IMG/VR virus record: IMGVR_UViG_3300038423_000106
DNA: 64,000 nucleotides
Strand: one strand, 5' to 3'
DNA from: an uncultured virus (IMG/VR IMGVR_UViG_3300038423_000106)
Taxonomy: Duplodnaviria; Heunggongvirae; Uroviricota; Caudoviricetes
Each line of letters opens with the position of its first letter. Position 1 is the stretch's first letter. The translations under genes were made by a program, and so were the position numbers. Positions 256 through 64,000 of the stretch are shown here, piece by piece. The notes beneath the pieces were generated by a model that was not told the origin of the DNA, ran no database searches, and was given only the letters and a program-made list of their open reading frames with translations.

Positions 256-256
256 G

Positions 257-601: not shown

Positions 602-603
602 CG

Positions 604-1356: not shown

Positions 1357-1357
1357 G

Positions 1358-2866: not shown

Positions 2867-2870
2867 TTTT

Positions 2871-23833: not shown

Positions 23834-24073
23834 TCACGAGAACGCTTTGACCAGCCAGTCGTACCAGTGGCGGTGGTGGGCGGGAACCTCAAGGGGCGCC
23901 TCCACCTCTCCGCTCTGCACCTGCGCCGCCTCCGGCATCTCGATCGGCTCCGCCGGCAACTCCACGTTCGGCAAGTCGGGCGCGCCGTGAATTTCTAACT
24001 CCACGTGGTGCACGTCGTTCCCGAGCGGAACGACCTTCTTGACGCGGACCTTGCGGGTTTTCTTCTTCACCAT
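23834..24073 (-). CDS. Hypothetical protein
   Basis: Coupled to peptidase gene; SD-like GGTGG. Confidence 0.5.
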   Translation of the reverse strand: MVKKKTRKVRVKKVVPLGNDVHHVELEIHGAPDLPNVELPAEPIEMPEAAQVQSGEVEAPLEVPAHHRHWYDWLVKAFS

Positions 24074-31838: not shown

Positions 31839-32372
31839 TCATATGTGTTTCCATGTCTGTCGTCCTAGAATTCCAACGACATTTCGTAAAGCCAAATTAT
31901 ATTTTTCAGCAAGATACTTTGCGGTAACTTTGCGCGGGATATATTCTGCCCTGATTTTCAACACCGTAGCATTATCGGTCTTAGATGAAGGGCGTTGTTC
32001 ACCGCGAAGCGTTCGGTCGCGTCCTTTTCTTCTCATGTCAGCCAGATTGTCGGCTTGGGTGCCCTCAATGATATGCCGCGGGTTGAAGCAAGGTGGATTA
32101 TCGCATGTGTGTAAGCCGTTCGGCGTTGGCCAATGCCCGTGAGTAAAAAAGAATGCAAGTCTATGCACTGGAACTGATCTACCTTCGTACCAAACTCCGC
32201 CGTAATCTCTGTAGCTCTTACTGAATGGCCAAAGCAAACAATCATCACTCTTGTGGTTCGCGATACTTCGTTTAAGATACTCAAGAGTCCCTTTCCACAT
32301 GGGATTGCGCGGGCCACACACTTTGCGTTTAGCTATATGTTCGGGAGTCTGTTTATACCCAAATTTCGTCAT
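31839..32372 (-). CDS. HNH homing endonuclease
   Basis: C..W.......YG.......HR.......LHTCDNP.C.NP.H...GT..DN..D. Confidence 0.9.
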   Translation of the reverse strand: MTKFGYKQTPEHIAKRKVCGPRNPMWKGTLEYLKRSIANHKSDDCLLWPFSKSYRDYGGVWYEGRSVPVHRLAFFFTHGHWPTPNGLHTCDNPPCFNPRHIIEGTQADNLADMRRKGRDRTLRGEQRPSSKTDNATVLKIRAEYIPRKVTAKYLAEKYNLALRNVVGILGRQTWKHI

Positions 32373-45130: not shown

Positions 45131-46057
45131 TCAGCGGTCAGCAGCAACGGGCGAAGTAGAGGCGACCGCTGAAACCTTCTTGCCGAAACGATCACATTCG
45201 TAGAGAACCTTCCCCACCCTGAATCCGATCTTGTAGGGATACTCTGGGTTGTCTTTCCACTCATACAAGTCGGCCTTATTGATCTCGACAGCGATATAGC
45301 GGTCGCCTTTAACCGTGCGGAACTCATCGCAGAAATACGGAAGCGAGCAAGCATGGAATTTACCACCGCCACATTCACTGTTCTTTGGTTCCCATGCTTT
45401 ATGCTCGACCGTAGAACCCACCAGCCATAGTGTTTCATTCTCGGTATTTTCCTGCGTCTTCCAGTCAACGGAAACTCGCTTGTAAAGTACGACTTTGTCA
45501 CTTTCTTCGACTGCGTTGCGTTCAAACCATCCTAAATCCTTGATGATCTGCACGTGGCAGTGTTTGGACTGTTTGCCTATATTCAGATTGATCGTGACTG
45601 GAAGGAAGGCTACAGAGAAGCCATGCAGCAGAATCTTTACGAATGCAGAGAAGATGCGCACAACAGAGTTCCCCCACGCCACGACCGAAGAGTTCTCCCA
45701 CGCCACGACCGAAGAGTTCCCCCACGCCACGACCGAAGAGTTCCCCCACGCCACGACCGAAGAGTTCTCCCACGCCACGACCGAAGAGTTCCCCCGCGCC
45801 ACGACCGAAGAGTTCTCCCGCGCCACGACCGAAGAGTTCCCCCACGCCACGACCGAAGAGTTCTCCCACGCCACGACCGAAGAGTTCCCCCGCGCCACGA
45901 CCGAAGAGTTCCCCCACGCCACGACCGAAGAGTTCCCCCGCGCCACGACCGAAAGCCATTTACCAGCTGTATCCTTAATTATGATACGCGTGTATTCATC
46001 GAACTTCTTTGGCAGTGCGTCCAGTTCAGATTGAGTAGTAACTACGATTTCTTTCAC
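45131..46057 (-). CDS. Octapeptide-repeat (beta-solenoid) protein
   Basis: GTG start after GGAGG; (NSSVVA[W/R][G/E])n; C-terminal LYK.V...C..G.FH.C...K domain. Confidence 0.75.
   Translation of the reverse strand: MKEIVVTTQSELDALPKKFDEYTRIIIKDTAGKWLSVVARGNSSVVAWGNSSVVARGNSSVVAWENSSVVAWGNSSVVARENSSVVARGNSSVVAWENSSVVAWGNSSVVAWGNSSVVAWENSSVVAWGNSVVRIFSAFVKILLHGFSVAFLPVTINLNIGKQSKHCHVQIIKDLGWFERNAVEESDKVVLYKRVSVDWKTQENTENETLWLVGSTVEHKAWEPKNSECGGGKFHACSLPYFCDEFRTVKGDRYIAVEINKADLYEWKDNPEYPYKIGFRVGKVLYECDRFGKKVSAVASTSPVAADR
45666..45953. repeat. 24-bp tandem repeat x12
   Basis: GAGTTC[C/T]CC[A/G]CGCCACGACCGAA units; variation at two positions only. Confidence 0.95.
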
Positions 46058-46192: not shown

Positions 46193-46339
46193 ATGGACGA
46201 GCAAACCAAAACTTTATACGTCAGAGACGTTCCAGTGCTTTTGATGAATAAAGCGAAAGCAGCTGCGGCCACTGAGGGGCTTTCGTTCCCAAAGTGGATC
46301 ATTAAACTGATTGAAAAGACGGTGGGGATTAAGAAATGA
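46193..46339 (+). CDS. Ribbon-helix-helix regulator (48 aa)
   Basis: MDEQTKTLYVRDVP..LM.KAK..AA.EG.S...WI..LI; SD AAGGA. Confidence 0.7.
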   Translation: MDEQTKTLYVRDVPVLLMNKAKAAAATEGLSFPKWIIKLIEKTVGIKK

Positions 46340-46788
46340 AACGCTTCTGGGATAAGGTAAACAAAAATGGCCCTTTACCCCCTAAGCATCCAGAATTAGG
46401 GCACTGCTGGTTGTGGCTAGCCGGGTGTTCCGGAGATGGTTACGGAGCATTCTGGTTTGAGGGGAAAACTGTTCGAGCACATCGATTCTCTCTGTGGTTA
46501 GTTGGACGAAACATACCAGAGGGGATGCAGCCAGATCACCTCTGCGAAGTGACGATCTGTATAAGGCCGGAGCATATTAAAGTCACGACTCCTAGAGACA
46601 ATGTCCGAAGAACGGACAGTCCCCCCGCCGAAAATGCGCGCAAAACGCATTGCTTGAACGGTCATCTGCTCTCGGGAAATAATCTCTACACACAAGGCGT
46701 TCGAAGGCGAGTTTGTATCACTTGCCGTCGACAACGACGCATGGCACGTTATTGGAGTCTATCCAAACAAGAACGGAGATTCGCATGA
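46336..46788 (+). CDS. HNH endonuclease
   Basis: RFW.KV...CW.W...GYG.F....AHR.S....DHLC....C.RP.H; KTHC..GH. Confidence 0.9.
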   Translation: MKRFWDKVNKNGPLPPKHPELGHCWLWLAGCSGDGYGAFWFEGKTVRAHRFSLWLVGRNIPEGMQPDHLCEVTICIRPEHIKVTTPRDNVRRTDSPPAENARKTHCLNGHLLSGNNLYTQGVRRRVCITCRRQRRMARYWSLSKQERRFA

Positions 46789-51483: not shown

Positions 51484-51650
51484 CGCCCTGCTATCCTGCT
51501 TGGATGATGCTCGTTTCCGAATTGTGGTGCGCGTTCTGCGGATTCTGGATAGGGATGGCCGTTGAGCGCCGCCTGTGCAAGAAACGGAGGGCTGCGCTGC
51601 TCGGAAAGGAAACGCCGTGAACGGAAAAGAAGTAGCTCCGGGCGTGATAG

Positions 51651-52169
51651 TCAGAAGCGGAACGTCGGACTGAGCGCGACGCTCGGAAGCCAACTTGACT
51701 GCTTTGGAACTTGGTCAGTTATTCCCGGCAAGTGGTTGGCTTGGACCTCGAACGCCAAACTGAAACTCGTTGAACCCGACGGCGCCCAGCGCAGGAAGAA
51801 CCCGGCCCGTTCGCCCCAGTGGTTCGCAGCGCCTTTTACGATTCCGAGGCTGCTCGTGACTCCGAACTGATAGTTGTATCCCGTGAGCGCGGTGTGGTTC
51901 TGGAGCCAAGTCGCTACTTGCGGGATCACGCGGTCGTAGCGTCCGCCGACGAACGTATCGTTGCTGATGAGCGTAGTCGGCCCCACGTCGTTGTTCGGCG
52001 TAAGGCTCACGAGGATATCAGACTCGGCCCCGGCAACGGTCGTGCCCACTCCGGGCAACGTCACGGGCGTCAGTCCGAAAGAGTATGTGGTATCGATGAA
52101 CGCCGATTGCTGCTGTCCGAAGCAAACCGCGCTTGCGAGGATCGCTGCTATCAGTACGAGTGTTTTCAT
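51651..52169 (-). CDS. Putative small outer-membrane beta-barrel protein
   Basis: Signal peptide, amphipathic beta strands, terminal TFRF. Confidence 0.55.
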   Translation of the reverse strand: MKTLVLIAAILASAVCFGQQQSAFIDTTYSFGLTPVTLPGVGTTVAGAESDILVSLTPNNDVGPTTLISNDTFVGGRYDRVIPQVATWLQNHTALTGYNYQFGVTSSLGIVKGAANHWGERAGFFLRWAPSGSTSFSLAFEVQANHLPGITDQVPKQSSWLPSVALSPTFRF

Positions 52170-52185
52170 TTTTGAGTTCTCCTTT

Positions 52186-52629
52186 TTAACCTATTCCCAC
52201 CTGTCCGTCCAAATCGGACGCTTGGCCCGCGACCGGGTCCGCGAACGTGATGGTCTGCGGTCCCGAGGCCAGCGCCGTCTCGATGTTGGCGTATAGCGGC
52301 GCGAACGCGGCGTCGCTCTCTCCGACGAAGTTTATCCCGAGAGTCGTCCCGACCAGGCAGCACCCGTCCGTGTCCCTCGGGAAATTCCCCGGATGGAGCA
52401 TGATCTCGGTGAAGTCGGGAACTTGCTCGACGTGCGGCATGTCGCGGTTGAAGCGCGGCGAGAACCGGATGTCGAGCGGGTATGTTCCGGCGGGGATGGC
52501 GCGCGGCTTGACCCCGGCCAACCCGTAGGCCGGCTCCAATGTGAAGCAGAAATGCGCGCCGCAGTAGAGCAGTTCCCCAGTGACGGAGAGCGACGTGGAC
52601 TGGCGGCGCCGCACGAAGAAGGCGGTCAC
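52186..52629 (-). CDS. Putative endolysin (DUF5675-like, L,D-transpeptidase-like)
   Basis: T.G.L......CFTLE......AIPAG.Y......S..F...P....VP.F..I..H.GN...DT.GC.LVG. Confidence 0.8.
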   Translation of the reverse strand: MTAFFVRRRQSTSLSVTGELLYCGAHFCFTLEPAYGLAGVKPRAIPAGTYPLDIRFSPRFNRDMPHVEQVPDFTEIMLHPGNFPRDTDGCCLVGTTLGINFVGESDAAFAPLYANIETALASGPQTITFADPVAGQASDLDGQVGIG

Positions 52630-52786
52630 GGCTTGAGCCTGTCCAGTCGTTGCAGCGCGCACTCCAGCCCGTGCAGAAAATCGGCGAGCAGTTCCCATCG
52701 CTCCGGGTTCTGCTCTTTGGCGAGTGAGAAGCTGACGGCTGCGTTGACCTCGCGCAGTTGGCCTTCCCAAAGGTCCAGGGGCAGGC

Positions 52787-53257
52787 TCACGGCTGCTCCT
52801 CCGCGTGGTGCTTCACGACGTAGTCGCGCCCCTGCATGTGCGCCCGCAGCATGTCCTTTATATCCTGAAGATCCTGCTTCGAGTTCGTGCGGAACTCCGA
52901 GTTCTTGACCTGCTCATCGCGCATGGCCGCGATCTTGTCGTTCAGCTTGTTGATCTCGTCGTGCATCTCCCGTCGGTCCTTCTCGCTGTCGGTCATGCGG
53001 TCGGAGAACGCCTGCCTGTCCTGCACGACGGAACTGAACTGCCCGAAGCTGAAGGCGATCAACCCGCCCACCAGTGTGCAGATGGTGCAAACCACGGCCA
53101 CGGACTGCCAGCGCCAGTGAAGGTCGATCCCGTTGGTCGGTGGCTGCGGCCCGACGGTGTCTACACTGGAATGGCGCTCGGTGTGGCTCGCGCTTTCTTC
53201 GGGCACAGGTCTGTCCTCGTTGGTCATGGCGAACATCGGGATGCCGAAATGGAACAT
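52787..53257 (-). CDS. Membrane protein with coiled-coil (lysis module)
   Basis: One TM segment then coiled-coil; upstream of endolysin. Confidence 0.55.
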   Translation of the reverse strand: MFHFGIPMFAMTNEDRPVPEESASHTERHSSVDTVGPQPPTNGIDLHWRWQSVAVVCTICTLVGGLIAFSFGQFSSVVQDRQAFSDRMTDSEKDRREMHDEINKLNDKIAAMRDEQVKNSEFRTNSKQDLQDIKDMLRAHMQGRDYVVKHHAEEQP

Positions 53258-53260
53258 CGT

Positions 53261-53494
53261 TCAGTACAACCCGAACACGTGCAGGAACAAAACGAACACG
53301 AGCAGGACGAGCAGCCAGAAGATGATCTGAACCCACGTGGGGTCGAGTCCGAGTTTCGGCGCGAGCAGCCCCCAAATCTTGAACAGGATCGCGCAGAGGA
53401 TGATCAGGATGATCACCCCCACGATGATCCCCGCCAATCCCTCGATCCCGAAGAACCCGTACCTGTGCAGACCGATTTGCAGTAAAGCCAGCAT
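53261..53494 (-). CDS. Holin-like two-TM protein
   Basis: Two very hydrophobic segments; SD AAGGAGG. Confidence 0.55.
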   Translation of the reverse strand: MLALLQIGLHRYGFFGIEGLAGIIVGVIILIILCAILFKIWGLLAPKLGLDPTWVQIIFWLLVLLVFVLFLHVFGLY

Positions 53495-53503
53495 GGAGCC
53501 TCC

Positions 53504-53857
53504 TTATTGCTTGTTCGATGAAGCCGGTGGCAAGTCCTTTATGAACTGCTGAAGCTGGAAGGCCGTGAGCCAGCCCTGCTGAACGAAGTACTGACCGATG
53601 ACCTGCACGAGCGAGTGCCCGAGCACGGCCAGCGACGGGATGGCTATCGCGATCTGCCATCCGGTCGAGGCGTTGCCGACGTAGGCGCCGTGGATGCCGA
53701 GGCCGGTGAGCAGCGCCATGAGAGCGCGAAAGCTGATATTGATCGCCGTCGTCTTCTGTGTCACCCACGGCAGCGACTTGCTCATCTGCGCGTAGTGTAG
53801 CACCGCGCCCCAGATCGCTCCAAAGGCTAGGTGTGTGAATACCAGGCTAGAGTCCAT
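53504..53857 (-). CDS. Holin-like membrane protein
   Basis: 2-3 TM segments; SD GGAGG. Confidence 0.55.
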   Translation of the reverse strand: MDSSLVFTHLAFGAIWGAVLHYAQMSKSLPWVTQKTTAINISFRALMALLTGLGIHGAYVGNASTGWQIAIAIPSLAVLGHSLVQVIGQYFVQQGWLTAFQLQQFIKDLPPASSNKQ

Positions 53858-53866
53858 CGTTTCCTC

Positions 53867-54526
53867 CTATGGTACGGTTACCGCCAGGGTCGCGCTCATG
53901 GCGCTGACTTTAGTTCCAAGCGCCGACTTGACGCCATAGTACCGGGTCTGCCCCTTGACCGGCTTCGTGTCGACATAGGACGCCGCTGTGAGCCCGCTCG
54001 CCAGCTGTTTCGGGTCGGGCAGTTTCGGTTCCACTCCCCGGAACACATCGTAGCTGATTCCCTGCAAATTTACAGGCGTCCACTTCAACGGCACGCGGTT
54101 CTCCGTGACAGTCTCGACCGTCAGGCCGGTGGGCGCCGGGGGCTGCGCGTCGGCTGGGATCGTGGCGCTCACCTCGTTTGACGGCCCTGAAAGGCTCGGG
54201 CTGGCGGTCGACAGATAGGCTTTGGCGACATACCAGTAGGTCTGCAGAGCCGTCACCGCCGTATCGGTGTAGGAGCAGGTCGCGAGCGGCGAAGCATTCA
54301 GTGCCGTCGCGCTCTCCCCGCCGGAGGCCGTTCCCTTGTAGAAATTAAACTGCACGCCCGCCGCCGTATCCGTGCATCCCCCGAGGGTAACGGAGTGCGC
54401 CGTCGCAGTGGCGGTGAGCGGGCGCGGCTCGATGGAGGGCGGGGCAGGAGTGTTGGCGCGCTGGGCAGTCGGAGTCATACAGCCGACCAGGGCGAGCGAG
54501 AGAACTGCGGTGATGATGATTTTCAT
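53867..54526 (-). CDS. Lipoprotein with two FN3-like domains
   Basis: Lipobox LVG-C; F/Y..Y/FRG...Y.D......Y.Y.V.A FN3 patterns. Confidence 0.75.
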   Translation of the reverse strand: MKIIITAVLSLALVGCMTPTAQRANTPAPPSIEPRPLTATATAHSVTLGGCTDTAAGVQFNFYKGTASGGESATALNASPLATCSYTDTAVTALQTYWYVAKAYLSTASPSLSGPSNEVSATIPADAQPPAPTGLTVETVTENRVPLKWTPVNLQGISYDVFRGVEPKLPDPKQLASGLTAASYVDTKPVKGQTRYYGVKSALGTKVSAMSATLAVTVP

Positions 54527-54533
54527 GATTCTC

Positions 54534-57026
54534 CTAGTGCACAGTCACAGACAATCCGGTTGGGGCGAGCGGGCCGCCCGTCAGCGGCGCGGCCGACATG
54601 AGGTCGATCAGCATCGCGTCACTTCTGCAATCGTTCGGACCCTCGTTCGTCCATTGCACCGTCCCGTCGAGCGAAGGGCAATTTCCGTATGACGGACAAA
54701 ATACTTGCCAGTTGGGAACCGTCGCGCCCGTCGTCCCTCCGGCCGCCGTGAGGTAGACGTCGTTGTTCGGGTTGTTCGACACGGGGTAGACGGCCGATCC
54801 ACCGGAGAACGCCGTGCTGGCGGACGGTGAAAACCCGGCACGCAGTTGGTCGCATGATGCCTTCAGGTTCTTCCATGTAACCCCGCCGTCCACGCAGGAG
54901 GTGGCGCAGGCGGCGTCCCAATCAGGCTGCGTGCCGGAAGTGGTGCCAGCGGCGATGACCTGGAAGTCGTATTTCCCCGCGTTGTTCGAGGTCGGGTACA
55001 TCGTGGCCCCGAGCGCGTAAGCCGCGCTCCCGGCCCACGCGGGCGAGGTCGAGCCGCGCGTCCCCATCATGTCCGTGCCGACCAATGCCCACTGGCCGTC
55101 CTGCGAGGCGTTCCCGATGTTGTTCTGCGCCTCGAAGCTCTGGTTCATCCCGGTGTTATAGATGTGCGAGAACCTATAGGTCGTTCCCAGCGGGCAAGTC
55201 CCGAGGCCCGTGCACTCTCCCACCACTTCACCGTAGTACGCCAGTCCAGTGAGTGCGCCGTTGGAGATCGTCGGAACCTGCGTGGCGAAGTCTACTATCG
55301 GAGGCGTATCCGTCAGCCCGGAATCGCGGTAGGAGTCATGGTGATCTGAAGGGAAGCCATTTGGCAGGATGTCCCGGCTCAACCATCCGGTTGAACCGCT
55401 ACCGCCAATGGTCGGATAGGGCACTTCGTCAATCGTCCCGCTCACGCTCTGATAAACCATCGGCTGCGAGAAAAGATGCTGGTACTGGTCATTGTCCGCC
55501 CAGTAGTTCAAGTAGCCCTGCGCCTGGTGGCCGGAGGTGTGGCTGGCCCCGCTCGTCTGCGTGCTGACGTTGATGTTCAGCGTGGCTACTTGCCAAGTGT
55601 AGGTGTAGCAGTAGACGTCGGCCAACTGCCAGTAGGTCGAGTTCGGGGGAGCGTTCCCCGCCGTCGGGGTGGCGTAGACGTACTCGTAGTAGCTGTACGG
55701 CGCGCCGTGCGAGGGATCGTAAACCGTCTGGTGCGCGGGACTCGTCTTGGAATAGGTCTTGCCCGCGCTGTATGCCCCGTAGTACGTCGCGTTCGTGTTC
55801 AGGCAATTAGCCGTCCCCGGCGTGAGCACGGGCGTCCCGCCGCCATGCGTCGGCGTCAGCGACATGTAGGCCGAATTAAGGTCTGCTCCATTCCCGTGCA
55901 GCGTCATCAGGTCGGTCAAGGGGCATGGGTTGGTCCCGTACTTGCCGCAGATCACCGTGTCGGTAGTTGTCCAAGTGCCCGCGACGGTCGTGCCAGATCG
56001 CACCTGCCCGAGCCGAGTATTCAAAGCGTAATATCCGGTTCCCGCTAAATACACTACAGCGTCGAATCCCGGCCCTTGCCCGTTGACTGAGCCAATGTTT
56101 GTCCACGTCACCCCTCCATCCGTGCAGGTCGAAGTGCAGGTCGACCACGTCGGCTCCGTGCCGGAAGTCGTTCCGCCGACGGTCGCCTGGAAGGCATGAT
56201 TGGCGGAATTCCCCGTTTGCGGATAGATGAACGAAGTGTAGTCTCCGGTAACGTAGGCCGTGCTCCCCTTCCAATCCATCCCGCCCGCCATCGCAAGGGC
56301 TACTGAGCCGTCTGTCGCTGTCGTAAACTCCCCGTTCCATGTACTAAAGTAGGTTTTGGGGAAAGCGTTGCCAAGGTTCGCGTAAAGCGTTCGCGTGAAC
56401 GTGTCTGTGCTCGGGTTGATCACGTCCTTGTAAATGGTCAGACCGTCCGACCAAAGCTCGAAGATGGTGTACGCCTGTCCTCGGCTGAATACCTCCGCGC
56501 CCCCCGAGTTGAGCACGGTGCAGCCAGAAGTGCACGGACTTCCGCTGATCGAGCCGCCGACGATCTGGCTCTTGGTCACGCCGGGATTCGAGGGCGAGAT
56601 CGGTGTTCCGCCCGCTTCAGCAGCCCGGATCGCCGTCTTGTTTAGGTAATAGAGATAAGGGCCGCCTCCGACTGAGTAGACCATGAGCATGTTCGAGTTC
56701 TGCTCAAACAGATCGCGTTCTCCATCCGAGCCGAGTTGGAAGCTGTTGGTCGTCAGATGTGTACTTTGATCGGTCACAAGCAGCAGGAACGAGCCGAAGT
56801 CTTTATCCGTAGTGGCGGTGTTCGCTGGCGCGTTCGCCGCGAACGGTCCTGTTCCCGTCAGGAGGAAGCTAATGGGCGCTCCCGCGTGGCCCACTCCGAC
56901 TCCCGCGACGCACCCGGATTCCGTCCCGACCTCGCAATTGTCCGTCCTCGCCGCGTAGGTCTGCGGCCCTTGCGCGAAACAGCAAGTCGTGAGCAGGACG
57001 CAGGCGAATTTGAGGAGGCTGCGCAC
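54534..57026 (-). CDS. Large secreted protein with W...Y..G...GT(T/S)G..P.W...DG...W repeats
   Basis: Signal peptide VRSLLKFACVLLTTCCFA-Q; three repeats; C-terminal APTGLSVTVH. Confidence 0.75.
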   Translation of the reverse strand: MRSLLKFACVLLTTCCFAQGPQTYAARTDNCEVGTESGCVAGVGVGHAGAPISFLLTGTGPFAANAPANTATTDKDFGSFLLLVTDQSTHLTTNSFQLGSDGERDLFEQNSNMLMVYSVGGGPYLYYLNKTAIRAAEAGGTPISPSNPGVTKSQIVGGSISGSPCTSGCTVLNSGGAEVFSRGQAYTIFELWSDGLTIYKDVINPSTDTFTRTLYANLGNAFPKTYFSTWNGEFTTATDGSVALAMAGGMDWKGSTAYVTGDYTSFIYPQTGNSANHAFQATVGGTTSGTEPTWSTCTSTCTDGGVTWTNIGSVNGQGPGFDAVVYLAGTGYYALNTRLGQVRSGTTVAGTWTTTDTVICGKYGTNPCPLTDLMTLHGNGADLNSAYMSLTPTHGGGTPVLTPGTANCLNTNATYYGAYSAGKTYSKTSPAHQTVYDPSHGAPYSYYEYVYATPTAGNAPPNSTYWQLADVYCYTYTWQVATLNINVSTQTSGASHTSGHQAQGYLNYWADNDQYQHLFSQPMVYQSVSGTIDEVPYPTIGGSGSTGWLSRDILPNGFPSDHHDSYRDSGLTDTPPIVDFATQVPTISNGALTGLAYYGEVVGECTGLGTCPLGTTYRFSHIYNTGMNQSFEAQNNIGNASQDGQWALVGTDMMGTRGSTSPAWAGSAAYALGATMYPTSNNAGKYDFQVIAAGTTSGTQPDWDAACATSCVDGGVTWKNLKASCDQLRAGFSPSASTAFSGGSAVYPVSNNPNNDVYLTAAGGTTGATVPNWQVFCPSYGNCPSLDGTVQWTNEGPNDCRSDAMLIDLMSAAPLTGGPLAPTGLSVTVH

Positions 57027-57028
57027 AC

Positions 57029-58696
57029 TTAATGCACCGTCACGGTCAAGCCAGTCGGGGCGTTCGGCCCCGTAGCCGCAAACTGGTACGCGCCCACGTT
57101 CCACGCGCCAGTGGAAGGACGATTAACTCCGAGAATGGCTGGAACGACTACAGTGTGATTGGTGGCGTTGTACGCCACGCCAGTGAACCCCTGAAGGCAG
57201 GCCGCCTTGGATACGGAATCGTTCAGTCCGTTGCAGAATGTCGCATTGTTCGTCCCGGCCCCGACCGTGGAATTACTGGATGCCGTGGGCGCGTAGTCGT
57301 TCGCTGACGTGTAGCCCTGCGTAGCGGCAAGAGTGGGCGTCATAAACAGATCAGTAGTTTCGCTACTGAATGAGCATCCGTCCATCGTGGAAGTGTAGGT
57401 CGTGATCCAGTGATTGTTCTGGGAGCTAACCGATCCGGGAGCCGGAGCGGGGCAGGGCCATGCTGAATTGAACGGAGGATTCACGAAAGTGTTGTTATAA
57501 AAAGCCACATTCCCGCCGCCGATGGGAGGCGATGCTTGGCTGATGTTGAAGTAGTTCGAGTTCGCGTACAGGTCATGGATGACGTTGTTGAAGACGTAGT
57601 CTGTCTGTCCGGTAGGCGGGGCGAGCCACAGCGTGTTCGCGGAAAGCGCCTGGCTCCCGAGCGTCCCGATGTAACGGAAGATGTTGTTGTAGAAAAGATT
57701 CGGATCTGACGAGCCGTGGGACGTTTCCCCGTAGCACTGGAGCACGTCCGAGTGCGACGAGCCATCCGTCACGTTGTTCATATACTCCCAGAGATTGTCG
57801 TGAACCCGATAGCAGCCAGAAGATGAATTTTCTCCTTGGTTGTAGCGAACGACGTTGTAATTGAACTGATAAACGTCGCCTTTCATCGAAATCAGCGAGT
57901 ACGGGTCGGAATCCGAACCGTCGATGACGTTGTATTCATAGGTGATTCCGGGCTCCTGATTATAGCTGTAAAATGCGATCCCGCCGCCACCTTGCGTGCC
58001 AGCCGAAGTATGGGTCCATCCGTGAACGTAGTTTCTCGAAACAATGTGCCCGTTCGGGCTGCCGCTGGAGTTGAAGGTGAGCATGATCGCGCCACCTTCG
58101 TTCGATGATTGCGTGGTGTTCCAGCAGAACCCAGTGAACTCGAAATCGTCAAGGATGTTATAAACCGTGCCGCTGAAGGCAACCATGTCGTTGCCGTTCG
58201 TGACTTGGTAGGCGCAACTGCCGACCACGCTCGTGCTCGGCGAGTTGTCGCCCGTGAAAACGGGCCGCGTCCATCCCGTGCTCGGCCATCCGAGATCGAC
58301 GCCGATGTACGTGTAATGACTGCTCGTGCCGCTCCAAGTGAAGTTGATGCCGCCACCGCCTGCGTATGGAGTCGCGGACGAGTTGCCGAAGTGGTAAGTC
58401 GATCCGCCCTCGATGATGATCCCGGTTCCAGCGGGAACGCCTGCTGATTGCACCGTGCCGCAAGTGGCCGTGCAGGTTGGCATCCCCGGAATGTGCAGCC
58501 ACGGGCTTGATTCACTAGTGCCGGAATTGCTGTCCGACGCCCCGGAGAGCGACGAAGCGTAATAGCAAGAGGTCACGCCAAGCGAGGCAAGGGTGACCAA
58601 CGCGCCCGAAGCATTCGGATAGTTCGTTCCATTGGGACAGGAGCCGCCAGCGGCAAAACAGGCCGCGCTCAGAAACAGGATAAGTACGCATCTCAT
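57029..58696 (-). CDS. Secreted right-handed beta-helix (pectin-lyase-like) protein
   Basis: Signal peptide; D.NSGT...PW...P, H.D..Q, YNN/FNN ladders, W..GAYQ; C-terminal APTGLTVTVH. Confidence 0.75.
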   Translation of the reverse strand: MRCVLILFLSAACFAAGGSCPNGTNYPNASGALVTLASLGVTSCYYASSLSGASDSNSGTSESSPWLHIPGMPTCTATCGTVQSAGVPAGTGIIIEGGSTYHFGNSSATPYAGGGGINFTWSGTSSHYTYIGVDLGWPSTGWTRPVFTGDNSPSTSVVGSCAYQVTNGNDMVAFSGTVYNILDDFEFTGFCWNTTQSSNEGGAIMLTFNSSGSPNGHIVSRNYVHGWTHTSAGTQGGGGIAFYSYNQEPGITYEYNVIDGSDSDPYSLISMKGDVYQFNYNVVRYNQGENSSSGCYRVHDNLWEYMNNVTDGSSHSDVLQCYGETSHGSSDPNLFYNNIFRYIGTLGSQALSANTLWLAPPTGQTDYVFNNVIHDLYANSNYFNISQASPPIGGGNVAFYNNTFVNPPFNSAWPCPAPAPGSVSSQNNHWITTYTSTMDGCSFSSETTDLFMTPTLAATQGYTSANDYAPTASSNSTVGAGTNNATFCNGLNDSVSKAACLQGFTGVAYNATNHTVVVPAILGVNRPSTGAWNVGAYQFAATGPNAPTGLTVTVH

Positions 58697-59586
58697 TGGA
58701 TCACCACGCAGATCACGTTCGACGGCGGACCTTCTTTTCCCGCAGAGTCCACTGCCGTTACGTAGTAGTCGTAGTTGTAGAACAGGGCTACTACCTGATC
58801 CGTATAGGTCACAGTCGGAGCCGTGACCGATCCGATCTTCGTCATGCTGACCGGCGTGCTGCTTCCTGTGCAACTTCCGGTCGAAGGATAGCCACGATAG
58901 ATATTGTAACTAGCGGCAGGATCACTTCCCGTAGGGGCGGTCCACGCGGGGAGCGTGTAGTGCGGAGCGAGCACGTAGCTGTATCTGTTGTTGAACCACT
59001 GGCCACCGATCAGAGAATAGAGCGTGACATACATAGTCGAACCGTTGGCCGGGAACCCGGTCGCCTGAGTGCTCGTGAGAACGTTCCCCAGATTGCCGGA
59101 CTGGATGTAATTGTTCCCGCCCACGGTGGTCCCTATGTCGATCCAGTAGGCAGTTGCGCTCGTTCCTGCCGCCCATGTGAACGTTATGTGGTTTGTGTCC
59201 AGAGTCGAGTTGTTCGTCGGAGTCTGCATGACGGCGGCCCCGGCCGTTCCGTTCAGCGACGAATACGTGTAGACGCCGTGCTGCCATACGCCGCTCACCA
59301 GAGAGTACAGGGTGGCATAGACTGTTGTGCCGTTCAATGGGAGGCTCTGCACGGTGATAGTCAGAACGTTTCCCAGATTGCCGGATTGGTAGTAATTGTT
59401 CCCGCCAGCCGTCGTCCCGAGGTCGAGCCAGTAGGCCGTCGCCCCGCAGGAGGAGCAAGTCCAGTCGAACGTCACCGTGCTCCCGCTGAGTTGGGTTCCG
59501 GGTGTCGGCGTGGTGAGCGTGGCTTGCGGGAACGCCGCCGCGCAAGCGAGCCAGAGGAAGACTGCAAGTTTGCAGGTAATTTTCAT
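58693..59586 (-). CDS. Secreted protein, two tandem beta-sandwich repeats plus FN3-like domain
   Basis: Signal peptide; AYW.D.GT..GGNNY.QSGNLGNVLT twice; YNIYR...YYVTAV. Confidence 0.75.
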   Translation of the reverse strand: MKITCKLAVFLWLACAAAFPQATLTTPTPGTQLSGSTVTFDWTCSSCGATAYWLDLGTTAGGNNYYQSGNLGNVLTITVQSLPLNGTTVYATLYSLVSGVWQHGVYTYSSLNGTAGAAVMQTPTNNSTLDTNHITFTWAAGTSATAYWIDIGTTVGGNNYIQSGNLGNVLTSTQATGFPANGSTMYVTLYSLIGGQWFNNRYSYVLAPHYTLPAWTAPTGSDPAASYNIYRGYPSTGSCTGSSTPVSMTKIGSVTAPTVTYTDQVVALFYNYDYYVTAVDSAGKEGPPSNVICVVIQ

Positions 59587-60479
59587 TGGTAGCCCGCCGC
59601 CGTCCAGAAGATCGTGCTCGTGACTTCCGTCGTGTCGCTCGACACGATAAGGAACCCGAATGCCGTCTGATTGACCACGTTCAGGAAGCCGTTGCCGAAC
59701 CCGGCGGCGGCGCTCTTGCGCGTCACCTCCACGGCGTAGTTCGCGTCGCAGTAGGCAGCTCCGTTCGAGAACGTGACCTGATATGCCGCTTCAGGGGAGG
59801 AGCCGTACTGCTGCAACTGTCCGACGCCCGAGGCCACGTGGTTGTCACATGCCGTGGCTGCGGTCCCCGTCTGCCCGAGCAGAAAGAACGTAGGAGCGGG
59901 GGGTGGCGGAGCAGGAAAGGGCGCGCAGTTCGGGTATCCCGTGCTCAGCCATCCAGTAACCACCGGGGTCAGCGCTGGGCAGTTAGATTGGTAGATGCCT
60001 CCGAGCGAGTAGAGTTGCGGCGTGGCGAGCTTGGCCGTGATCACGGAAGGGTTCGTCGGCACGTACTGGTCGAAGTTACAAGCGCCGTTCGCGCACCAGT
60101 AGTTCGAGGTCTGCGGCTGCACGCACGCGTTGCCGTTCGCGGCGGGAGAGATCACGACGTTGTTCGAATCCTTTATGGTCAAAGCAAAACAAATGTTCAT
60201 GGGATTCGTCGTGCTCGTGTTCGCCACCTGGCAGCCGCCCGTGATCGCCCCGTTCACTATCGGGCACACGGTCGGGTACGTGATCTGCTGCCCTCCGCCG
60301 TTCACCTGGTAGCTCACGGGGTTCCCGCCGCTGTCCGTGGCCTGCCAGACGAGTATCCCCGATGGCAGCAGGACTCCTCCAGCGCCGTATATGTTCGCGG
60401 CCGTGATGTTCATGAACGATTGGGAGAACGCGCTCCCGGCGAGCGCCGTCAGCAAAGCGATTTGAAGCAGTCGTTTCAT
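59583..60479 (-). CDS. Secreted fibre-like protein
   Basis: Signal peptide MKRLLQIALLTALAGSAFS-Q; C-terminal VTF....Y.V......T..GF.......W.A.G domain typical of tail-fibre tips. Confidence 0.7.
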   Translation of the reverse strand: MKRLLQIALLTALAGSAFSQSFMNITAANIYGAGGVLLPSGILVWQATDSGGNPVSYQVNGGGQQITYPTVCPIVNGAITGGCQVANTSTTNPMNICFALTIKDSNNVVISPAANGNACVQPQTSNYWCANGACNFDQYVPTNPSVITAKLATPQLYSLGGIYQSNCPALTPVVTGWLSTGYPNCAPFPAPPPPAPTFFLLGQTGTAATACDNHVASGVGQLQQYGSSPEAAYQVTFSNGAAYCDANYAVEVTRKSAAAGFGNGFLNVVNQTAFGFLIVSSDTTEVTSTIFWTAAGYQ

Positions 60480-62764
60480 TGCACCCCCGCCCCCCCGAAA
60501 ACCGCACTCCCACCTATCACTTTGTTCGGACTCGACAGTCCCGCCCAAGCCTCGACCAGGTTGTAGACGTTGACGCTCCCGAGGCCGGTGGCGAAGTCCC
60601 AGCCGGAAGTGGCGGGGTAGGCTGGTTGGTAGGCGCTGTCACTCGTGCTCAACACGCCGAAGTATTGATATGTGGAATCGTCGGGATCGTAGCAATTGAC
60701 GTAAGTCGAGGCAGCTCCCGGATCACCACAACTTGTCGCGTTATCGCCTGCGGTGATGTCGTGAAAGACACACGAACTGCCTATTGAACTTCCAAGGCTT
60801 GCGTTGCACTGACTGTTTCCACCTGATCCGTATTCCGCCCGTGCTAATTGGTACAAAATAGGATTCGCAAGCCCCGACTGCGTTGTGCCGATCTTCTGGT
60901 TTATCAAAGCCTGAATCCCGGCCCAGATGGGCGTACCCAAACTGGTCCCCAAAACGCCGCCCCAGAGCGTAGGAGGGTTGAGTGTGCCGCCAGTTCCATA
61001 GCAACCTTCGGAATCCGAGTTGCAATACATATAAAAATGCGTCCAAGTGCCTCCCCCGGAGAACATCGCCACGTCTGGCTGGTCGCGCACGCCATCTGAG
61101 GGATTGCCGAGAACGGATTGCCATGAAGGTTTCGGCCATCCGGCGCAAGTGCCGTTCACGACTGTGCCGCCAACGGGAACAGCCTGCCCGGTAGCGCAAC
61201 TGCTCGGTCCTCCGCTGCCCGCGAGAATGGACTGGGAGTTTCCCGCTGTGTAAATCGCGCCTCCATAACCCGTGACAGGAAAGTTGCCATCCTTGATCGT
61301 GTTGCATACGCTAGTCGAGCCGTAGATTGGAATGCCGAGATACGAGGCTATGAGCGGGCTGGTGCAGGAATCGTCCCACGGAATCTCCGGCACGTAAGTG
61401 CCGCCTGCGGTGCCATACACCGAGTTATTGGTCGCGTTCCAATAGGAATTTATCGTTCCGGCGTAAGTGTCCCCGAAGTCCGTCCCGCCCACCGACGTGG
61501 CGTAGGGTGTCGAGCCAATCGCGTTCACGCTGAAGCCGAACACGGCAGAGAGGCCGTCGCTGCCAAAGCTGCAAATGCTCGCCCCCCAGTCCCCCGCGGC
61601 CACGAAAACTGAAATACCCTCCGACGCCGCCTGTTGTAACGCGTCATAATAAGCCAAGTTCGCGGCAGGCCCGTTCGCGGGTTCGCACAGTGCGTAACTG
61701 ACGCTCATGATCGTCGGCGGGGAAGGCAGGTTGACCAAGTTCTGAATCGCGATGATGATGCCGTCCCCAAATCCGCTGTCCCCGGCAAAGCAGGACGCGA
61801 GCACGAGATTGGCGCTCGGGGCTGCTGCGCTCGCCCACTCAACATCCACGGCGGCCTCAAGAACGTCAGGCGTGACGCCGGGATCGCTGCATGTAGGCTG
61901 CCCGCTGACCTGCGGGTGGGTCAGCGTTAGGGTGCTGGTGTAAGTGCTGAGTCCGCTAACCGAACGGAAATTTAGCCAGTCGCCATTCCACGGGCCACCC
62001 GAAGGTTCTTGCAAATCTGAATCTTCGACCAGCGTGATCGTCTGCCCCTGCCCGCTGATCCCGGAACTGAAGAGTGGGAGGAAACCGTAAATCGTCTCCA
62101 AATCGAACGGCATGACGTTTTGCAGTGTCCCGGCGCCATTAGTAAGAATTATCTGCGGCTCGGGGTTGAAGTTGCTCAGCCCCATGATGCCGACAATTGC
62201 GGGAGCCAAGGCAGCCGGGACTTGGGGGTTGCTGACATTGCCCCTGTGGTTTTCGCTGGTCATTGGGCCGAGGCCCATGTTGCCATTCGGCTTCCTGCGG
62301 TTCACGGTCAGGTTGTGAATCTCGGTGTGGAAGGCGCCTGTGACCTGTCCCGCCGTACCCGAGAAATCTATCGTCAGATTGCTCGCGCCGTTGACCGTGA
62401 AGCCGTGCGACTTCAGCCATGTCGTGATGGCTTTCCGGTCGTCAGGATGCGTCGGCCACTGCGCGTTGAACTGAGCCGCCGTGAGCCATTTGCGGTAGTT
62501 CGGATGCTTTCGATCGTAGCGCGTCTCCACGTCGGCGGCCAGTGCTTGCGATTGTTCAGGAGCGCGGGCCAGCACCATGACCATGTGGTTCATGGCGAAG
62601 CTATCGGCCACCTTGCCCTTGTCGTTTGCCGGGACGGTCGCCTCGGGCCTCGTGTTGCCAGCAAGCGTTGCCAGTTTGGTTTCGTCCACAGCAGAGGTCA
62701 CGAGTCGGCGCGGGGTCTGCGCCATGACGCTCGCGGCCAGCAAGATCAGAAGGGTTATCCTCAT
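60476..62764 (-). CDS. Secreted S53 (sedolisin/kumamolisin) peptidase with prodomain
   Basis: Signal peptide; prodomain Y.KWLT..QF; catalytic EAAVD, AAGD.G, GTS..P; Ca site DIT.G.N and GWD..TGLGS. Confidence 0.9.
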   Translation of the reverse strand: MRITLLILLAASVMAQTPRRLVTSAVDETKLATLAGNTRPEATVPANDKGKVADSFAMNHMVMVLARAPEQSQALAADVETRYDRKHPNYRKWLTAAQFNAQWPTHPDDRKAITTWLKSHGFTVNGASNLTIDFSGTAGQVTGAFHTEIHNLTVNRRKPNGNMGLGPMTSENHRGNVSNPQVPAALAPAIVGIMGLSNFNPEPQIILTNGAGTLQNVMPFDLETIYGFLPLFSSGISGQGQTITLVEDSDLQEPSGGPWNGDWLNFRSVSGLSTYTSTLTLTHPQVSGQPTCSDPGVTPDVLEAAVDVEWASAAAPSANLVLASCFAGDSGFGDGIIIAIQNLVNLPSPPTIMSVSYALCEPANGPAANLAYYDALQQAASEGISVFVAAGDWGASICSFGSDGLSAVFGFSVNAIGSTPYATSVGGTDFGDTYAGTINSYWNATNNSVYGTAGGTYVPEIPWDDSCTSPLIASYLGIPIYGSTSVCNTIKDGNFPVTGYGGAIYTAGNSQSILAGSGGPSSCATGQAVPVGGTVVNGTCAGWPKPSWQSVLGNPSDGVRDQPDVAMFSGGGTWTHFYMYCNSDSEGCYGTGGTLNPPTLWGGVLGTSLGTPIWAGIQALINQKIGTTQSGLANPILYQLARAEYGSGGNSQCNASLGSSIGSSCVFHDITAGDNATSCGDPGAASTYVNCYDPDDSTYQYFGVLSTSDSAYQPAYPATSGWDFATGLGSVNVYNLVEAWAGLSSPNKVIGGSAVFGGAGVQ

Positions 62765-63708
62765 TTCTGCACGACCGAGGCGCGGTGGCGCTTCACGCTG
62801 CCGCCGCCTGTATAGGTATAGGAAGCCACGTTGCTGTCTGCCGTGTAGGAAGTTCCGGCGACCACGTTGATTGTTTCGGCCACGGAAACGGTGAAACTCT
62901 CAGCAAACGAGCCTGTAGTACAGGCCAATCCAAATCCATTCGTCACCGGATTCGTTGGGCTGACCGCATAACATGTTACGAACGTGGCCGACGAACTGGA
63001 ACAGCTCACGGTCTGCGGCACCGTCCCGCTGCTCGGCGTGCAAGTCGGCGTGGCGGCCTTGGTCACGCTCCCACTGGTCTTGAAGGCGGCGACGTTCGAC
63101 TCCGCATCGTCGCCATCGGCGCAGGTCCACACCATGTCGATGGCCCCGCTGCCTGTGTTGTGGTAGTAGGCGTCTGCCTGCGAAGCGGTGGAAGGGTTAT
63201 AGTCGTCGTTCGCTATGGTGCCCGTGCTTACCGAACTGCAATCTCCGCTGCCGTCGAACCCTCCATAGGTCGAGATGAACAAGTCTCCGGACTGCGAAGG
63301 CAACAGGCTGCCGGGGTCTTGGCCGTTGCCATTGTTATTATTGCTGCCATCCGCCGGATTGAATCCAGTTGGCGTCCCGCTGAAGACCTGCACGGTGAGG
63401 AAGGCGCCGCCGCTTGCGCATGAAACTGTATCGGTTCCGCCGGAGAACGAGCCATAGGCGTAGTATGTCCAAAGGTAGTCCGCATCGGCATTGGCCTCGA
63501 TGGCGTGCCAGCCCAGGCTTAAGGTATCTGTGGGCGCGTTGCCGATAATGCTGCACGATGCCTCGATCAGCGTAGCCGTGCCCGACCAAGTGACCGTGCA
63601 GGACGGCGGCGAATTCGTATAGTCGTCGCAGTTCCCGATGAGAGTCTGGGCGCTGGCCGCAGAACCAGCGAGCAGAAGCAAGGCGAGGATGAGTAAGATT
63701 CGTCGCAT
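62761..63708 (-). CDS. Secreted protein with C-terminal FN3-associated-like domain
   Basis: Signal peptide MRRILLILALLLLAGSAASA-Q; ATPT..P..G....V..S...Y....P. Confidence 0.7.
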   Translation of the reverse strand: MRRILLILALLLLAGSAASAQTLIGNCDDYTNSPPSCTVTWSGTATLIEASCSIIGNAPTDTLSLGWHAIEANADADYLWTYYAYGSFSGGTDTVSCASGGAFLTVQVFSGTPTGFNPADGSNNNNGNGQDPGSLLPSQSGDLFISTYGGFDGSGDCSSVSTGTIANDDYNPSTASQADAYYHNTGSGAIDMVWTCADGDDAESNVAAFKTSGSVTKAATPTCTPSSGTVPQTVSCSSSSATFVTCYAVSPTNPVTNGFGLACTTGSFAESFTVSVAETINVVAGTSYTADSNVASYTYTGGGSVKRHRASVVQK

Positions 63709-63710
63709 GG

Positions 63711-64000
63711 CTAATAGGTATATTCGATAATGACTGCGAGACTTGTGCTGTGCGTGTCGGGCGTGCCCATCACCGGATCAATGCCCGTCCCGGTCGTCCA
63801 GCTCGCGTTCGACACCGAGCACGAGGAACTGTAGGCATAGCTGTTCCCGCACTGAAGCGTGCCGCTGCAAACCGTCGTGCCCGTTCCAGCCGAGCCGAAT
63901 GACGGATTGACGGTCGTGGTGTTGGACGAGTAGTCGCTCCGGCACTTCACCGCCGTGATCGTCCGCGTCACTCCAGAATCGTTGTAGCAGGTGTTGTTCG
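63711..64000 (-). CDS. C-terminal part of fibre-like protein (start outside window)
   Basis: Thr/Ser/Cys-rich beta-sandwich TITAVKC..D...IIEYTY; frame open to window edge. Confidence 0.55.
   Translation of the reverse strand, partial: NNTCYNDSGVTRTITAVKCRSDYSSNTTTVNPSFGSAGTGTTVCSGTLQCGNSYAYSSSCSVSNASWTTGTGIDPVMGTPDTHSTSLAVIIEYTY

Follow-up and report, generated by a model that had tools for sequence, protein, structure and literature searches.

Eight coupled genes with predicted export leaders in the tail-fibre position of an uncultured peat myophage

The window analysed here is the 64,000-nucleotide stretch of IMG/VR record IMGVR_UViG_3300038423_000106, which belongs to an uncultured tailed phage. 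In the tail-fibre position of its late region lies a block of seven consecutive genes (A to G, Table 1), headed by a long fibre-like gene (FIBRE) that runs out of the window. Because these fibre-slot proteins carry bacterial secretion signals, the host-recognition gear of this phage probably folds outside the cytoplasm. This is unlike the textbook picture of tailed phages, in which morphogenesis is wholly cytoplasmic and fibres normally have no signal peptides. We propose that the block encodes host-recognition and depolymerase gear which is disulfide-bonded in the periplasm; at lysis the fibres, at the least, would be added to the particle. We consider this reading about equally likely to be right or wrong. 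The first-pass annotation of the window had called the system undescribed, and within the reach of our full-text literature searches no description of Sec-routed tail fibres or tailspikes in tailed phages turned up.

Results

Export leaders and start sites

Leaders were called with a home-made heuristic, which asks for an n-region with non-negative net charge, an h-region of 8 to 18 uncharged residues with a mean hydropathy of at least 1.6, and small residues at positions -3 and -1. All seven block proteins are positive (7/7), and FIBRE is positive as well. The heuristic is negative for both holin-like open reading frames (ORFs), for the spanin-like ORF and for p177, the product of the gene ahead of FIBRE. 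Among the other ORFs of window positions 1-53860 (greedy ORFs, any start within the first 70 codons) one of 81 has a leader (Fisher p = 1.3e-9), and this is the gene for an outer-membrane-protein (OMP)-like product behind the lysis genes. FIBRE and A to F carry Sec signals of the signal peptidase I (SPase I) type; G carries a lipoprotein signal (SPase II) with the lipobox LVGC, found with the pattern [LVI][ASTVI][GAS]C. Gln stands at or beside position +1 in A, B, C, D and F. As judged from sequence, Sec-type export of the block proteins is well supported.

The first-pass annotation had described seven exported proteins, six with SPase I-type leaders and one with a lipobox, with Gln at or near +1 in five, and had found the genes coupled by ATGA overlaps or short gaps. 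Leaders, ORFs, starts and junctions all agree with that description: ATGA overlaps join A/B, B/C, C/D and D/E, and the spacers measure 2 nt at FIBRE/A and E/F and 7 nt at F/G. The run does not begin at A, however. What had been taken for a fibre-like fragment at 63711 is the end of FIBRE, which is itself leader-bearing and is coupled to p177 by ATGA too, so that there are eight coupled exported genes. By content their products fall into fibre-like or lectin-like proteins (FIBRE, A, C and D), enzyme-like proteins (B, E and F) and a lipoprotein (G). The remark that the products are mostly Cys-rich is borne out by the counts: Cys accounts for 69 of 3122 residues (2.21%) in the mature block proteins and for 52 of 6337 (0.82%) in 20 core structural proteins. 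Invariant or near-invariant Cys residues are found in the families of F, E and the C-terminal domain (C-domain) of FIBRE. Leaders, lipobox and Cys enrichment support the earlier proposal of an exported module.

Whether the true starts lie downstream of the hydrophobic segments was checked with relatives. In F, the motif TYxARTDNC..ESGC (residues 24-39) is near-invariant in 37 aligned relatives; the public gene call P0001 (786 aa) begins F at the GTG of residue 45, downstream of the conserved motif and the leader. Of 16 F relatives judged by eye, 11 open with a hydrophobic leader, and the other 5 have their start at the domain or within it. The best 150 representatives of the E family have a leader at residue 1 in 99 cases and at some start within 70 residues in 121, and a conserved AGGxCPxGxNY motif follows right after the leader in this family. 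Because relatives conserve mature N-terminal motifs upstream of the alternative starts, the starts that include the leader are supported.

The block lies in the tail-fibre slot of a circular phage genome

Pfam and PHROG scans of the window recover a myophage gene set (terminase, portal, DUF2213 protease, DUF3383 sheath, tape measure, Dit-like protein and Pam3-type plug), and the minus strand is the coding strand of all late genes. IMG/VR contig G002 (29,402 bp) is 100% identical to window positions 1-1549 and 63257-64000 and adds 9,707 bp between the two window ends. Because this contig joins both ends, the genome map is circular, with a length of ~73.7 kb; the same proteins also occur on public contigs of 73,834 bp. 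The genome is that of a ~73.7-kb circular myophage, whose host is a peat member of the Acidobacteriaceae.

The 9,707-bp stretch beyond the window codes for the baseplate hub, Baseplate_J, DUF2612, p177 and FIBRE, and the gene order on the circular map is hub, Baseplate_J, DUF2612, p177, FIBRE, A to G, holin. Within the late operon the block thus comes behind the baseplate wedge genes, as tail-fibre and receptor-binding genes do. Since it lies between baseplate and lysis genes and G002 closes the map, it is phage DNA in the tail-fibre slot. The worry raised in the first-pass annotation, that the block might be host DNA beyond a prophage boundary, is met by this closure. The protein p177 is a leaderless short fibre of 177 aa with a weak tail-fibre PHROG match, and PF21882 is found in three of its four relatives (self-match aside).

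Promoter-like sites number 1 in the block against 3.9 expected (for the sigma-70 consensus, which may not fit this host), and terminator-like sites 9 against 11 expected. No integrase appears among the Pfam and PHROG matches of 56 scanned window ORFs outside the block. At least half of the sampled words of the block are present in 19 run entries, 18 of them labelled as peat or wetland metagenome and one only as 'metagenome'. One RNA library yields mismatch-free contigs over the baseplate genes, FIBRE and C/D that leave A and most of B uncovered, and DNA carry-over is possible in this library; the contigs agree with late co-expression, for which they are weak support. Runs X21 and X22 gave short pieces only, mostly 90-95% alike, which most likely stem from other organisms.

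FIBRE and its tagged partner A

FIBRE is a fibre-like protein of 1323 aa, rich in Gly, Ser, Thr and Ala, with its start outside the window (contig L006, 7575-11546) and a leader that reads MMMRLKWFLALLLLAPFAWS-QK. Its 76 homologues mainly have the last ~145 aa in common, at 70-87% identity. This C-domain has invariant Cys at positions 1213, 1238, 1253 and 1284, and all 30 of its 30 nearest Atlas clusters are without a common Pfam family; the entries shown are viral and unnamed. FIBRE, A and C have no Pfam, PHROG or NCBIfam match. The NCBIfam scan gave nothing for 14 of 15 proteins and one far-sub-threshold match for B, searches of PDB sequences with FIBRE, E and B gave nothing usable, and tblastn with the FIBRE C-domain and F found no match in 50,697 GenBank phage records. 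The C-terminus of FIBRE (...IIEYTY) was also considered as an outer-membrane beta-signal or trimeric-autotransporter anchor; this idea was set aside as improbable, because the C-domain is polar, has four invariant Cys and has viral look-alikes only.

The C-domain retrieved 28 other IMG/VR loci, with identities of 56-87% (best tblastn segment), GC contents of 41-58%, and podo-like and other unrelated phage backbones; the N-terminal parts differ. Dropping near-duplicates (L052, L058, L059, L061, L066, L073 and L076) left 21 unique loci. In 19 of these the ORF with the C-domain bears a leader, the misses being L054, which is cut by the contig end, and L068. Leaders also mark the next same-strand ORF (16/19) and the second next (13/19), against 28 of 368 other ORFs (p = 5.6e-28).

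A has the leader MRR-ILLILALLLLAG-SAASA^QT and ends in a Gly linker and a C-terminal tag, GGGSVKRHRASVVQK, of KRHRASVVQK type. Its Atlas model looks like a beta-sandwich joined to a CHB_HEX_C-like domain (weak match). A tag of this kind marks the gene that follows the FIBRE C-domain, in the window as well as in 13 of the 21 unique related loci, and sits either directly after the leader, as Q(E/T)VI(T/V)ARRR(A/S), or at the C-terminus. With a stricter tag pattern on greedy ORFs the count is 10 of 19 loci, and three further partners have a variant tag without arginines. Because the tag co-occurs with the C-domain in this gene neighbourhood, we infer that A is a tagged partner of FIBRE.

Protease-like B, fibre-like C and repeat protein D

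B has the leader MR-ITLLILLAASVM-A^QT and, at residues 63-199, the Pfam domain Pro-kuma_activ (PF09286, E 4.8e-21). This pro-kumamolisin activation domain marks it as a putative sedolisin (S53)-like pro-protease. No Pfam, NCBIfam or PDB match of the catalytic domain reaches threshold; in sub-threshold alignments with subtilases (E 0.25-0.3) GTSLGTP falls on the catalytic-Ser motif and AAGDWG on that of the oxyanion, the triad being read by eye. The C-terminal tail of B is KVIGGSAVFGGAGVQ, and the tail pattern in the B slot is KV(I/L)GGS..FGG.GV.

C (leader MKR-LLQIALLTALA) had been described as having a C-terminus like a tail-fibre tip. The fibre-like part turns out to be the N-terminal 169 residues instead, which match the N-terminus of a leader-bearing fibre of 2054 aa in locus L055 at 64% identity. 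Weaker matches exist in L065 and L068, and the N-terminus of P0061 is similar by eye. By these sequence matches, C is a putative exported short fibre-like protein. D consists of a leader, two lectin-like repeats of ~95 aa each and an FN3-like C-terminal domain; at the DNA level its internal repeat spans 89 nt, 82% identical and 285 nt apart. Six D-like repeats are fused ahead of an F domain in the bacterial protein P0026 and in locus L021.

Enzyme-like proteins E and F

E and F have no Pfam or NCBIfam family match. In its AlphaFold 2 (AF2) model (pLDDT 85.7, pTM 0.90) E has a right-handed beta-helix fold, with the best VIA-align matches to the hydrolase BT_1002 (Z 23.4), an alginate lyase (Z 22.2), the biofilm lyase RbmB (9ozd, Z 21.3) and the CBA120 tailspike TSP2 (Z 20.5). 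WceF (6tgf) matches the fold at Z 16.6. E is thus predicted to be an exported beta-helix enzyme resembling polysaccharide lyases and hydrolases.

F, with the leader (M)RSLLK-FACVLLTTCCFA^QG, had been counted among the FN3/beta-sandwich proteins; its structure model is a beta-propeller instead. The AF2 model (pLDDT 80.7, pTM 0.82; Foldseek probability 0.97-0.98) is seven-bladed and finds its best VIA-align match in 3c5m_A (Z 15.1, root-mean-square deviation 4.3, 344 of the chain's 376 residues aligned), and generic WD40 propellers reach Z ~12, about 3 below this PL22 match. The closest match of the modelled F is a PL22 oligogalacturonate-lyase-like beta-propeller core with inserted Cys-rich repeats, which match phrog_20658. 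H377, H500, H563 and Q317 are invariant in the family, and the 53 homologues of F are mostly from Terriglobales/Acidobacteriaceae.

E ends in the tail APTGLTVTVH and F in APTGLSVTVH. In the F model this APTGL(T/S)VTVH tail is disordered, and the copies of F in hosts are without it. By a loose pattern, an E-like strand ends 47 of the 150 E-family representatives. Read-through or frameshifting at the E and F tails, leading into an FN3 domain, was considered and dropped because the next ORF has its own leader and the same tail ends those 47 representatives. For type IX C-terminal domains or PEP-CTERM sorting tags no Pfam match was found; such tags may yet be present.

Many members of the E family (P0130-P0279) have a GAYQ(F/Y) motif near the C-terminus, directly followed by a linker and a final strand P(T/S)(G/N)LxxxV(Q/H/N). 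This strand looks like the first strand of an FN3 domain and may be a donor strand or a sorting tag. The phage F has acquired the same kind of tail as E (window 57029-57061 for E and 54534-54566 for F).

Cassette variation and recurrence in other phages

In C, D, F, G and the lysis genes, a second IMG/VR phage (contig L004) matches the window at 97.6-100% identity. Its E is only 58% identical, with conserved ends, and its B slot holds a different leader-bearing protein that keeps only the last ~20 residues of B. Such a swap pattern would be expected for specificity determinants that dock through constant ends.

The layout is not restricted to close relatives. In the unrelated contig L007, leader-bearing proteins of 1358, 501 and 1612 aa lie between a tail-fibre-like gene and an M15 endolysin, and the 1612-aa protein is a fusion of E-like and F-like domains. 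Several related phages have leader-bearing genes inside the structural module. A cultured example is Tunturiibacter phage Tunturi 1 (PP887698). Five of its proteins bear leaders, namely gp12, gp13, gp14 ('tail spike protein'), gp16 and gp17 ('virion structural protein'), and they are placed between the tail protein gp11 and the endolysin gp21. Four of these five are large and Cys-rich (Cys counts 20, 10, 21, 2 and 32 in the order given). Annotation of Tunturi 1 comes from Phold/PHROGs and not from proteomics, and in the passages of the Tunturi paper covered here signal peptides go unmentioned and virion proteomics is not reported (PMC11924767). The annotated start of its gp14 (L078, 15931-18690) overlaps gp13 by 37 nt; a classical leader begins 6 or 11 codons downstream, and the deposited start therefore probably lies too far upstream. 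Tunturi 4 has two leader-bearing proteins among 29 late ones, both small.

Cellulophaga phage phi18:3 (NC_021794) provides a case with experimental annotation. Its gp085, gp086 and gp087 each have a leader and Gln at +1, and the record labels them virion, structural and tail proteins 'based on experimental MS/MS proteomics analysis'. None of nine other phi18:3 proteins annotated by tandem mass spectrometry (MS/MS) that were checked has a leader. In the literature searched, whose scope did not include the primary proteomics paper, no discussion of the leaders of gp085-gp087 was found.

Bacterial relatives of F and E

Chromosomal relatives were found for both F and E, which are therefore common to phages and hosts. 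Judged by their look-alikes, FIBRE and its partner look viral only. Near-full-length relatives of F occur in 19 loci of Acidobacteriaceae/Terriglobales metagenome-assembled genomes (MAGs), and F is 66-70% identical to the chromosomal copies in Acidobacteriaceae MAGs. A Pfam scan covered 70 of 130 ORFs from seven MAG loci: five of the seven have a Peptidase_C1 gene behind F, in three cases together with Peptidase_M15_3, and housekeeping genes follow. Of the 11 MAG loci listed, 10 have the same C1-peptidase C-terminus behind F, and the C1 peptidase of the phage itself is 47% identical to that of the chromosomal island. Two loci are plainly non-phage. In L018, F is fused to Big_3_5/MBG_2 and is flanked by cytochrome bd genes and an NfeD gene; in L023 its neighbour is a gene for exopolysaccharide (EPS) synthesis.

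The island is conserved in L010-L017, L019, L020, L024, L025 and L027 (Acidobacteriaceae MAG chromosomes) and flanked by housekeeping genes. Its order is a leader-bearing F homologue, a small leader protein, Peptidase_M15_3, a ~200-aa lipoprotein and Peptidase_C1, the small leader protein being present in the loci closest to the phage F. The island may be what remains of a fixed prophage, or a host locus for envelope remodelling with two genes in common with the phage.

Lipoprotein G, lysis genes and other features of the window

G, the last gene before the holin, encodes a lipoprotein with FN3-like domains, whose sequence reads MKIIITAVLSLALVGC. It has a weak match to phrog_33719, and its interior stretch PAPTGLTVETV resembles the tails of E and F. 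G showed no similarity to the leader protein of 130 aa encoded behind F in the chromosomal island. The lysis cassette and the gene behind it are listed in Table 1. No lipobox ORF, and hence no classical o-spanin, was found in 51600-53900. The OMP-like protein, with the leader MKT-LVLIAAILASAV, is the product of a ninth leader-bearing late gene and, from its sequence, resembles a small outer-membrane beta-barrel; it may be the outer-membrane partner of the spanin-like protein, or a Lom-like moron.

Table 1. Genes of the exported block and of the adjoining lysis region (window coordinates)
Feature	Position	Strand	Length	Remarks
FIBRE 3' end (last 95 codons)	63711-64000	minus		most of the Cys-rich C-terminal domain (~145 aa)
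A	62761-63708	minus	315 aa	
B	60476-62764	minus	762 aa	
C	59583-60479	minus	298 aa	
D	58693-59586	minus	297 aa	
E	57029-58696	minus	555 aa	
F	54534-57026	minus	830 aa	GTG start
G	53867-54526	minus	219 aa	
Lysis cassette	52186-53857	minus		Pfam/PHROG; no cleavable leader by the heuristic
Two holin-like ORFs	53504-53857, 53261-53494	minus		
Spanin-like ORF	52787-53257	minus		
DUF5675 protein	52186-52770	minus		
OMP-like leader-bearing gene	51651-52169	minus	172 aa	ends in ...SPTFRF; follows the DUF5675 gene

Elsewhere in the window, four homing-endonuclease-like genes, two GIY-YIG and two HNH, are found at 7946-8791, 13995-14750, 31839-32372 and 46336-46788, with both GIY-YIG genes sitting within the structural module. 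A short-chain dehydrogenase gene and a radical SAM gene (16802-19022, minus strand) lie between the portal and Mu F-like head genes, and a papain-family (Peptidase_C1) gene (24067-24891, minus strand) lies upstream of the small terminase. The tape-measure-like protein (1358-2944, minus strand) has a glucosaminidase domain. Around ~45665-45905, the 99-nt end of contig L003 matches at several offsets 24 nt apart; these offsets point to a tandem array of 24-nt units beside the divergent early region, possibly iterons or operator repeats.

Discussion

A possible route from periplasm to particle

The mechanism that we favour would run as follows. FIBRE and A to G would be translocated by Sec, their leaders would be removed, in most cases exposing Gln, and disulfides would form in the periplasm. 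The exported proteins would then associate through short terminal tags, the KRHRASVVQK-type tag of A pairing with the FIBRE C-domain, and the APTGL(T/S)VTVH tail of E and F and the B-slot tail KV(I/L)GGS..FGG.GV pairing with other partners. Once the two compartments are merged by holin, endolysin and spanin, the fibre-like members, if not others too, could dock onto finished particles, a likely docking site being the stub p177 or the baseplate. Protease, lipoprotein and possibly the glycanases would act on the envelope and exopolysaccharide of the infected cell and on the matrix after burst. A role on the particle is suggested by the fibre slot, the fibre-like members, the tags, the cassette pattern and the spread over phage lineages, in some of which the leader-bearing proteins are the main tailspike candidates.

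Several observations weigh against this proposal. The leaders were called by our own heuristic rather than by SignalP. Sec export separates the proteins from the cytoplasmic particles until lysis, and we know of no mechanism for late docking; nor, to our knowledge, is a secreted-type pro-protease such as B or a lipoprotein such as G of a kind found as a virion part. The canonical fibre position is already occupied by the leaderless p177, and the GC content at third codon positions (GC3) in the block, 0.70-0.81, lies below the 0.85-0.93 of the adjoining baseplate genes, as in accessory genes. F occurs in chromosomal non-phage contexts (L018, L023 and the Peptidase_M15_3/Peptidase_C1 island). 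The top structural matches of E are monomeric bacterial enzymes and not tailspikes, and the E family has 890 representatives, most of them leader-bearing. The cultured phage Tunturi 3 has no leader-bearing protein among 35 late ones, and therefore the trait is not general for phages of Acidobacteriota. Finally, the case of phi18:3 comes from another phylum, depends on a record note only, and may involve co-purification.

Alternative explanations

The first-pass annotation had left a choice between appendages that are folded in the periplasm and added at lysis, and a secreted or surface complex; both survive the present analysis, and computation decides neither. In the second case all eight proteins would stay off the particle, strip or remodel exopolysaccharide and cell surface, and clear the matrix after the burst, which we regard as possible although rather unlikely. 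Known mechanisms would suffice for such proteins, which would act late in infection like receptor-destroying or exclusion factors. They would find their counterparts in the large secreted bacterial enzyme families of E and F, known from non-phage contexts too; a pro-protease and a lipoprotein suit them, as do the presence of a normal leaderless fibre and the accessory-gene-like GC3. Bacteria reportedly have exported tailspike-like EPS enzymes, namely WceF (PMC7949094; 6tgf, Z 16.6) and RbmB (9ozd, Z 21.3), and 5% (3261/64,678) of prophage carbohydrate-active enzymes (CAZymes) are reported to have signal peptides (PMC13507307). What such a role leaves unexplained is FIBRE, whose C-domain and tagged partner travel among phage backbones and have viral look-alikes only, and the tails that are kept during cassette swaps. 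The leader-bearing genes inside the structural module of several related phages and the MS/MS annotation of the leader-bearing phi18:3 proteins as virion proteins also speak against it. We find it improbable that the genes are instead morons or auxiliary metabolic genes (AMGs), that is, host-derived cargo for the lysogen or the infected cell (polymer nutrition, adhesion) expressed apart from the late operon. In favour of this, lambda lom and bor occupy the same two places of a late region. F is close to its chromosomal copies (66-70% identity) and the phage Peptidase_C1 to its island copy (47%); soil viruses are known to carry CAZymes (PMC13507307; PMC11924767). A separate expression of such cargo is difficult to reconcile with the unbroken translational coupling from p177 to the holin, with promoter-like and terminator-like sites that are not in excess and, weakly, with RNA-library contigs that span baseplate and block genes alike; the scanned window ORFs include no integrase, and the look-alikes of FIBRE and its partner are viral only.

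Export itself might also be doubted. If the hydrophobic N-termini were start artefacts, or uncleaved anchors or adaptor helices, the proteins could be ordinary cytoplasmic fibres and tailspikes. The public call P0001, which starts F 44 codons downstream of the leader, would fit this, as would the FIBRE homologue P0123 and locus L068, which are without a leader, and the home-made nature of the heuristic. We nevertheless consider this very unlikely, given the mature N-terminal motifs conserved between leader and alternative starts, the ATGA coupling that fixes the upstream starts, and the leader kept across otherwise diverged sequences with enriched Cys. The classical n-h-c layout, AXA-type cleavage sites, Gln at +1 and the lipobox in G point the same way. 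That the block is host chromosome outside a prophage boundary has next to no probability, in spite of the many chromosomal relatives of F and E: the 29.4-kb contig G002, 100% identical to both ends of the window, links the fibre at one end to the plug and baseplate genes at the other, where the window starts; the block is flanked by baseplate and lysis genes, and the 73,834-bp public contigs hold the same proteins.

Comparison with known systems

The two cultured phages resemble the window in layout. In phi18:3, three consecutive large proteins with leader and Gln at +1 are encoded just upstream of the lysis region. It differs in its Bacteroidota host, its podovirus type and its few Cys (0, 1 and 3 in gp085-gp087), and tblastn of F and the FIBRE C-domain against a collection containing its record gave no match. 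Tunturi 1 is, like the phage of the window, a phage of Acidobacteriota and has five leader-bearing proteins, encoded after a tail protein and ahead of the lysis genes. Unlike it, Tunturi 1 is a podovirus, and BLAST finds no similarity to the window block.

Other likenesses concern function and organisation. T4 gp37/gp38 (fibre and tip adhesin) and the tailspike trees of CBA120 and G7C are modular or branched receptor-binding complexes. The block is like them in having a fibre gene followed by a small partner gene, enzymes and lectins in a row, conserved docking ends with exchangeable middles, and variation between near-identical phages. Those proteins are not known to have signal peptides and assemble in the cytoplasm, and docking in the block would use short terminal tags and not N-terminal adaptor domains. 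Lambda Lom and Bor, T5 Llp and phi80 Cor are exported phage proteins of late regions. By position, G and the OMP-like gene fit the Lom/Bor-type pattern. Genes of this type are single, have their own expression and are not fibre-like, whereas the block consists of eight coupled genes that recur across lineages. What the block has in common with them, and with the signal-peptide-bearing prophage CAZymes (PMC13507307), are leader-bearing or lipoprotein genes beside tail-fibre or lysis genes. E, F and B also match secreted matrix enzymes in fold or domain (RbmB, WceF, the PL22 lyase 3c5m, and sedolisins/kumamolisin), which are likewise exported and associated with extracellular polymers. They differ from these in being phage-borne, with extra C-terminal tails, and E and F are without a sequence-family match.

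Conclusions

Summarizing, the preferred reading of the block is host-recognition and depolymerase gear that is exported, disulfide-bonded in the periplasm and, in the case of the fibres at least, added to the particle at lysis. Far more tentatively, and with rather low confidence, this might be extended to a two-compartment assembly in tailed phages of several phyla. The cytoplasm would then build capsid, tail and leaderless stub, and a tag-coded, disulfide-bonded 'tree' of long fibre, tip lectins and glycanases would be built in the periplasm and join the baseplate after holin triggering. The terminal tags would be a docking code for swapping cassettes between phages, with the Arg-rich strand of A-type partners, the APTGL(T/S)VTVH tail and the GGS..FGG.GV tail as candidates.

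The same layout occurs in two cultured phages, Tunturi 1 (Tunturiibacter) and phi18:3 (Cellulophaga), which makes the question directly testable. If the proposal is true, fibre annotation changes, as gene callers and AMG pipelines trim or misfile such proteins (the F call P0001 being an example), and so does the reading of soil viral 'CAZyme AMGs'. Host-range prediction and engineering would then depend on the Sec and Dsb machinery and the signal peptidase of the host. For the phage itself, disulfide-stabilised fibres and acid-active enzymes would suit particles that survive in acidic peat.

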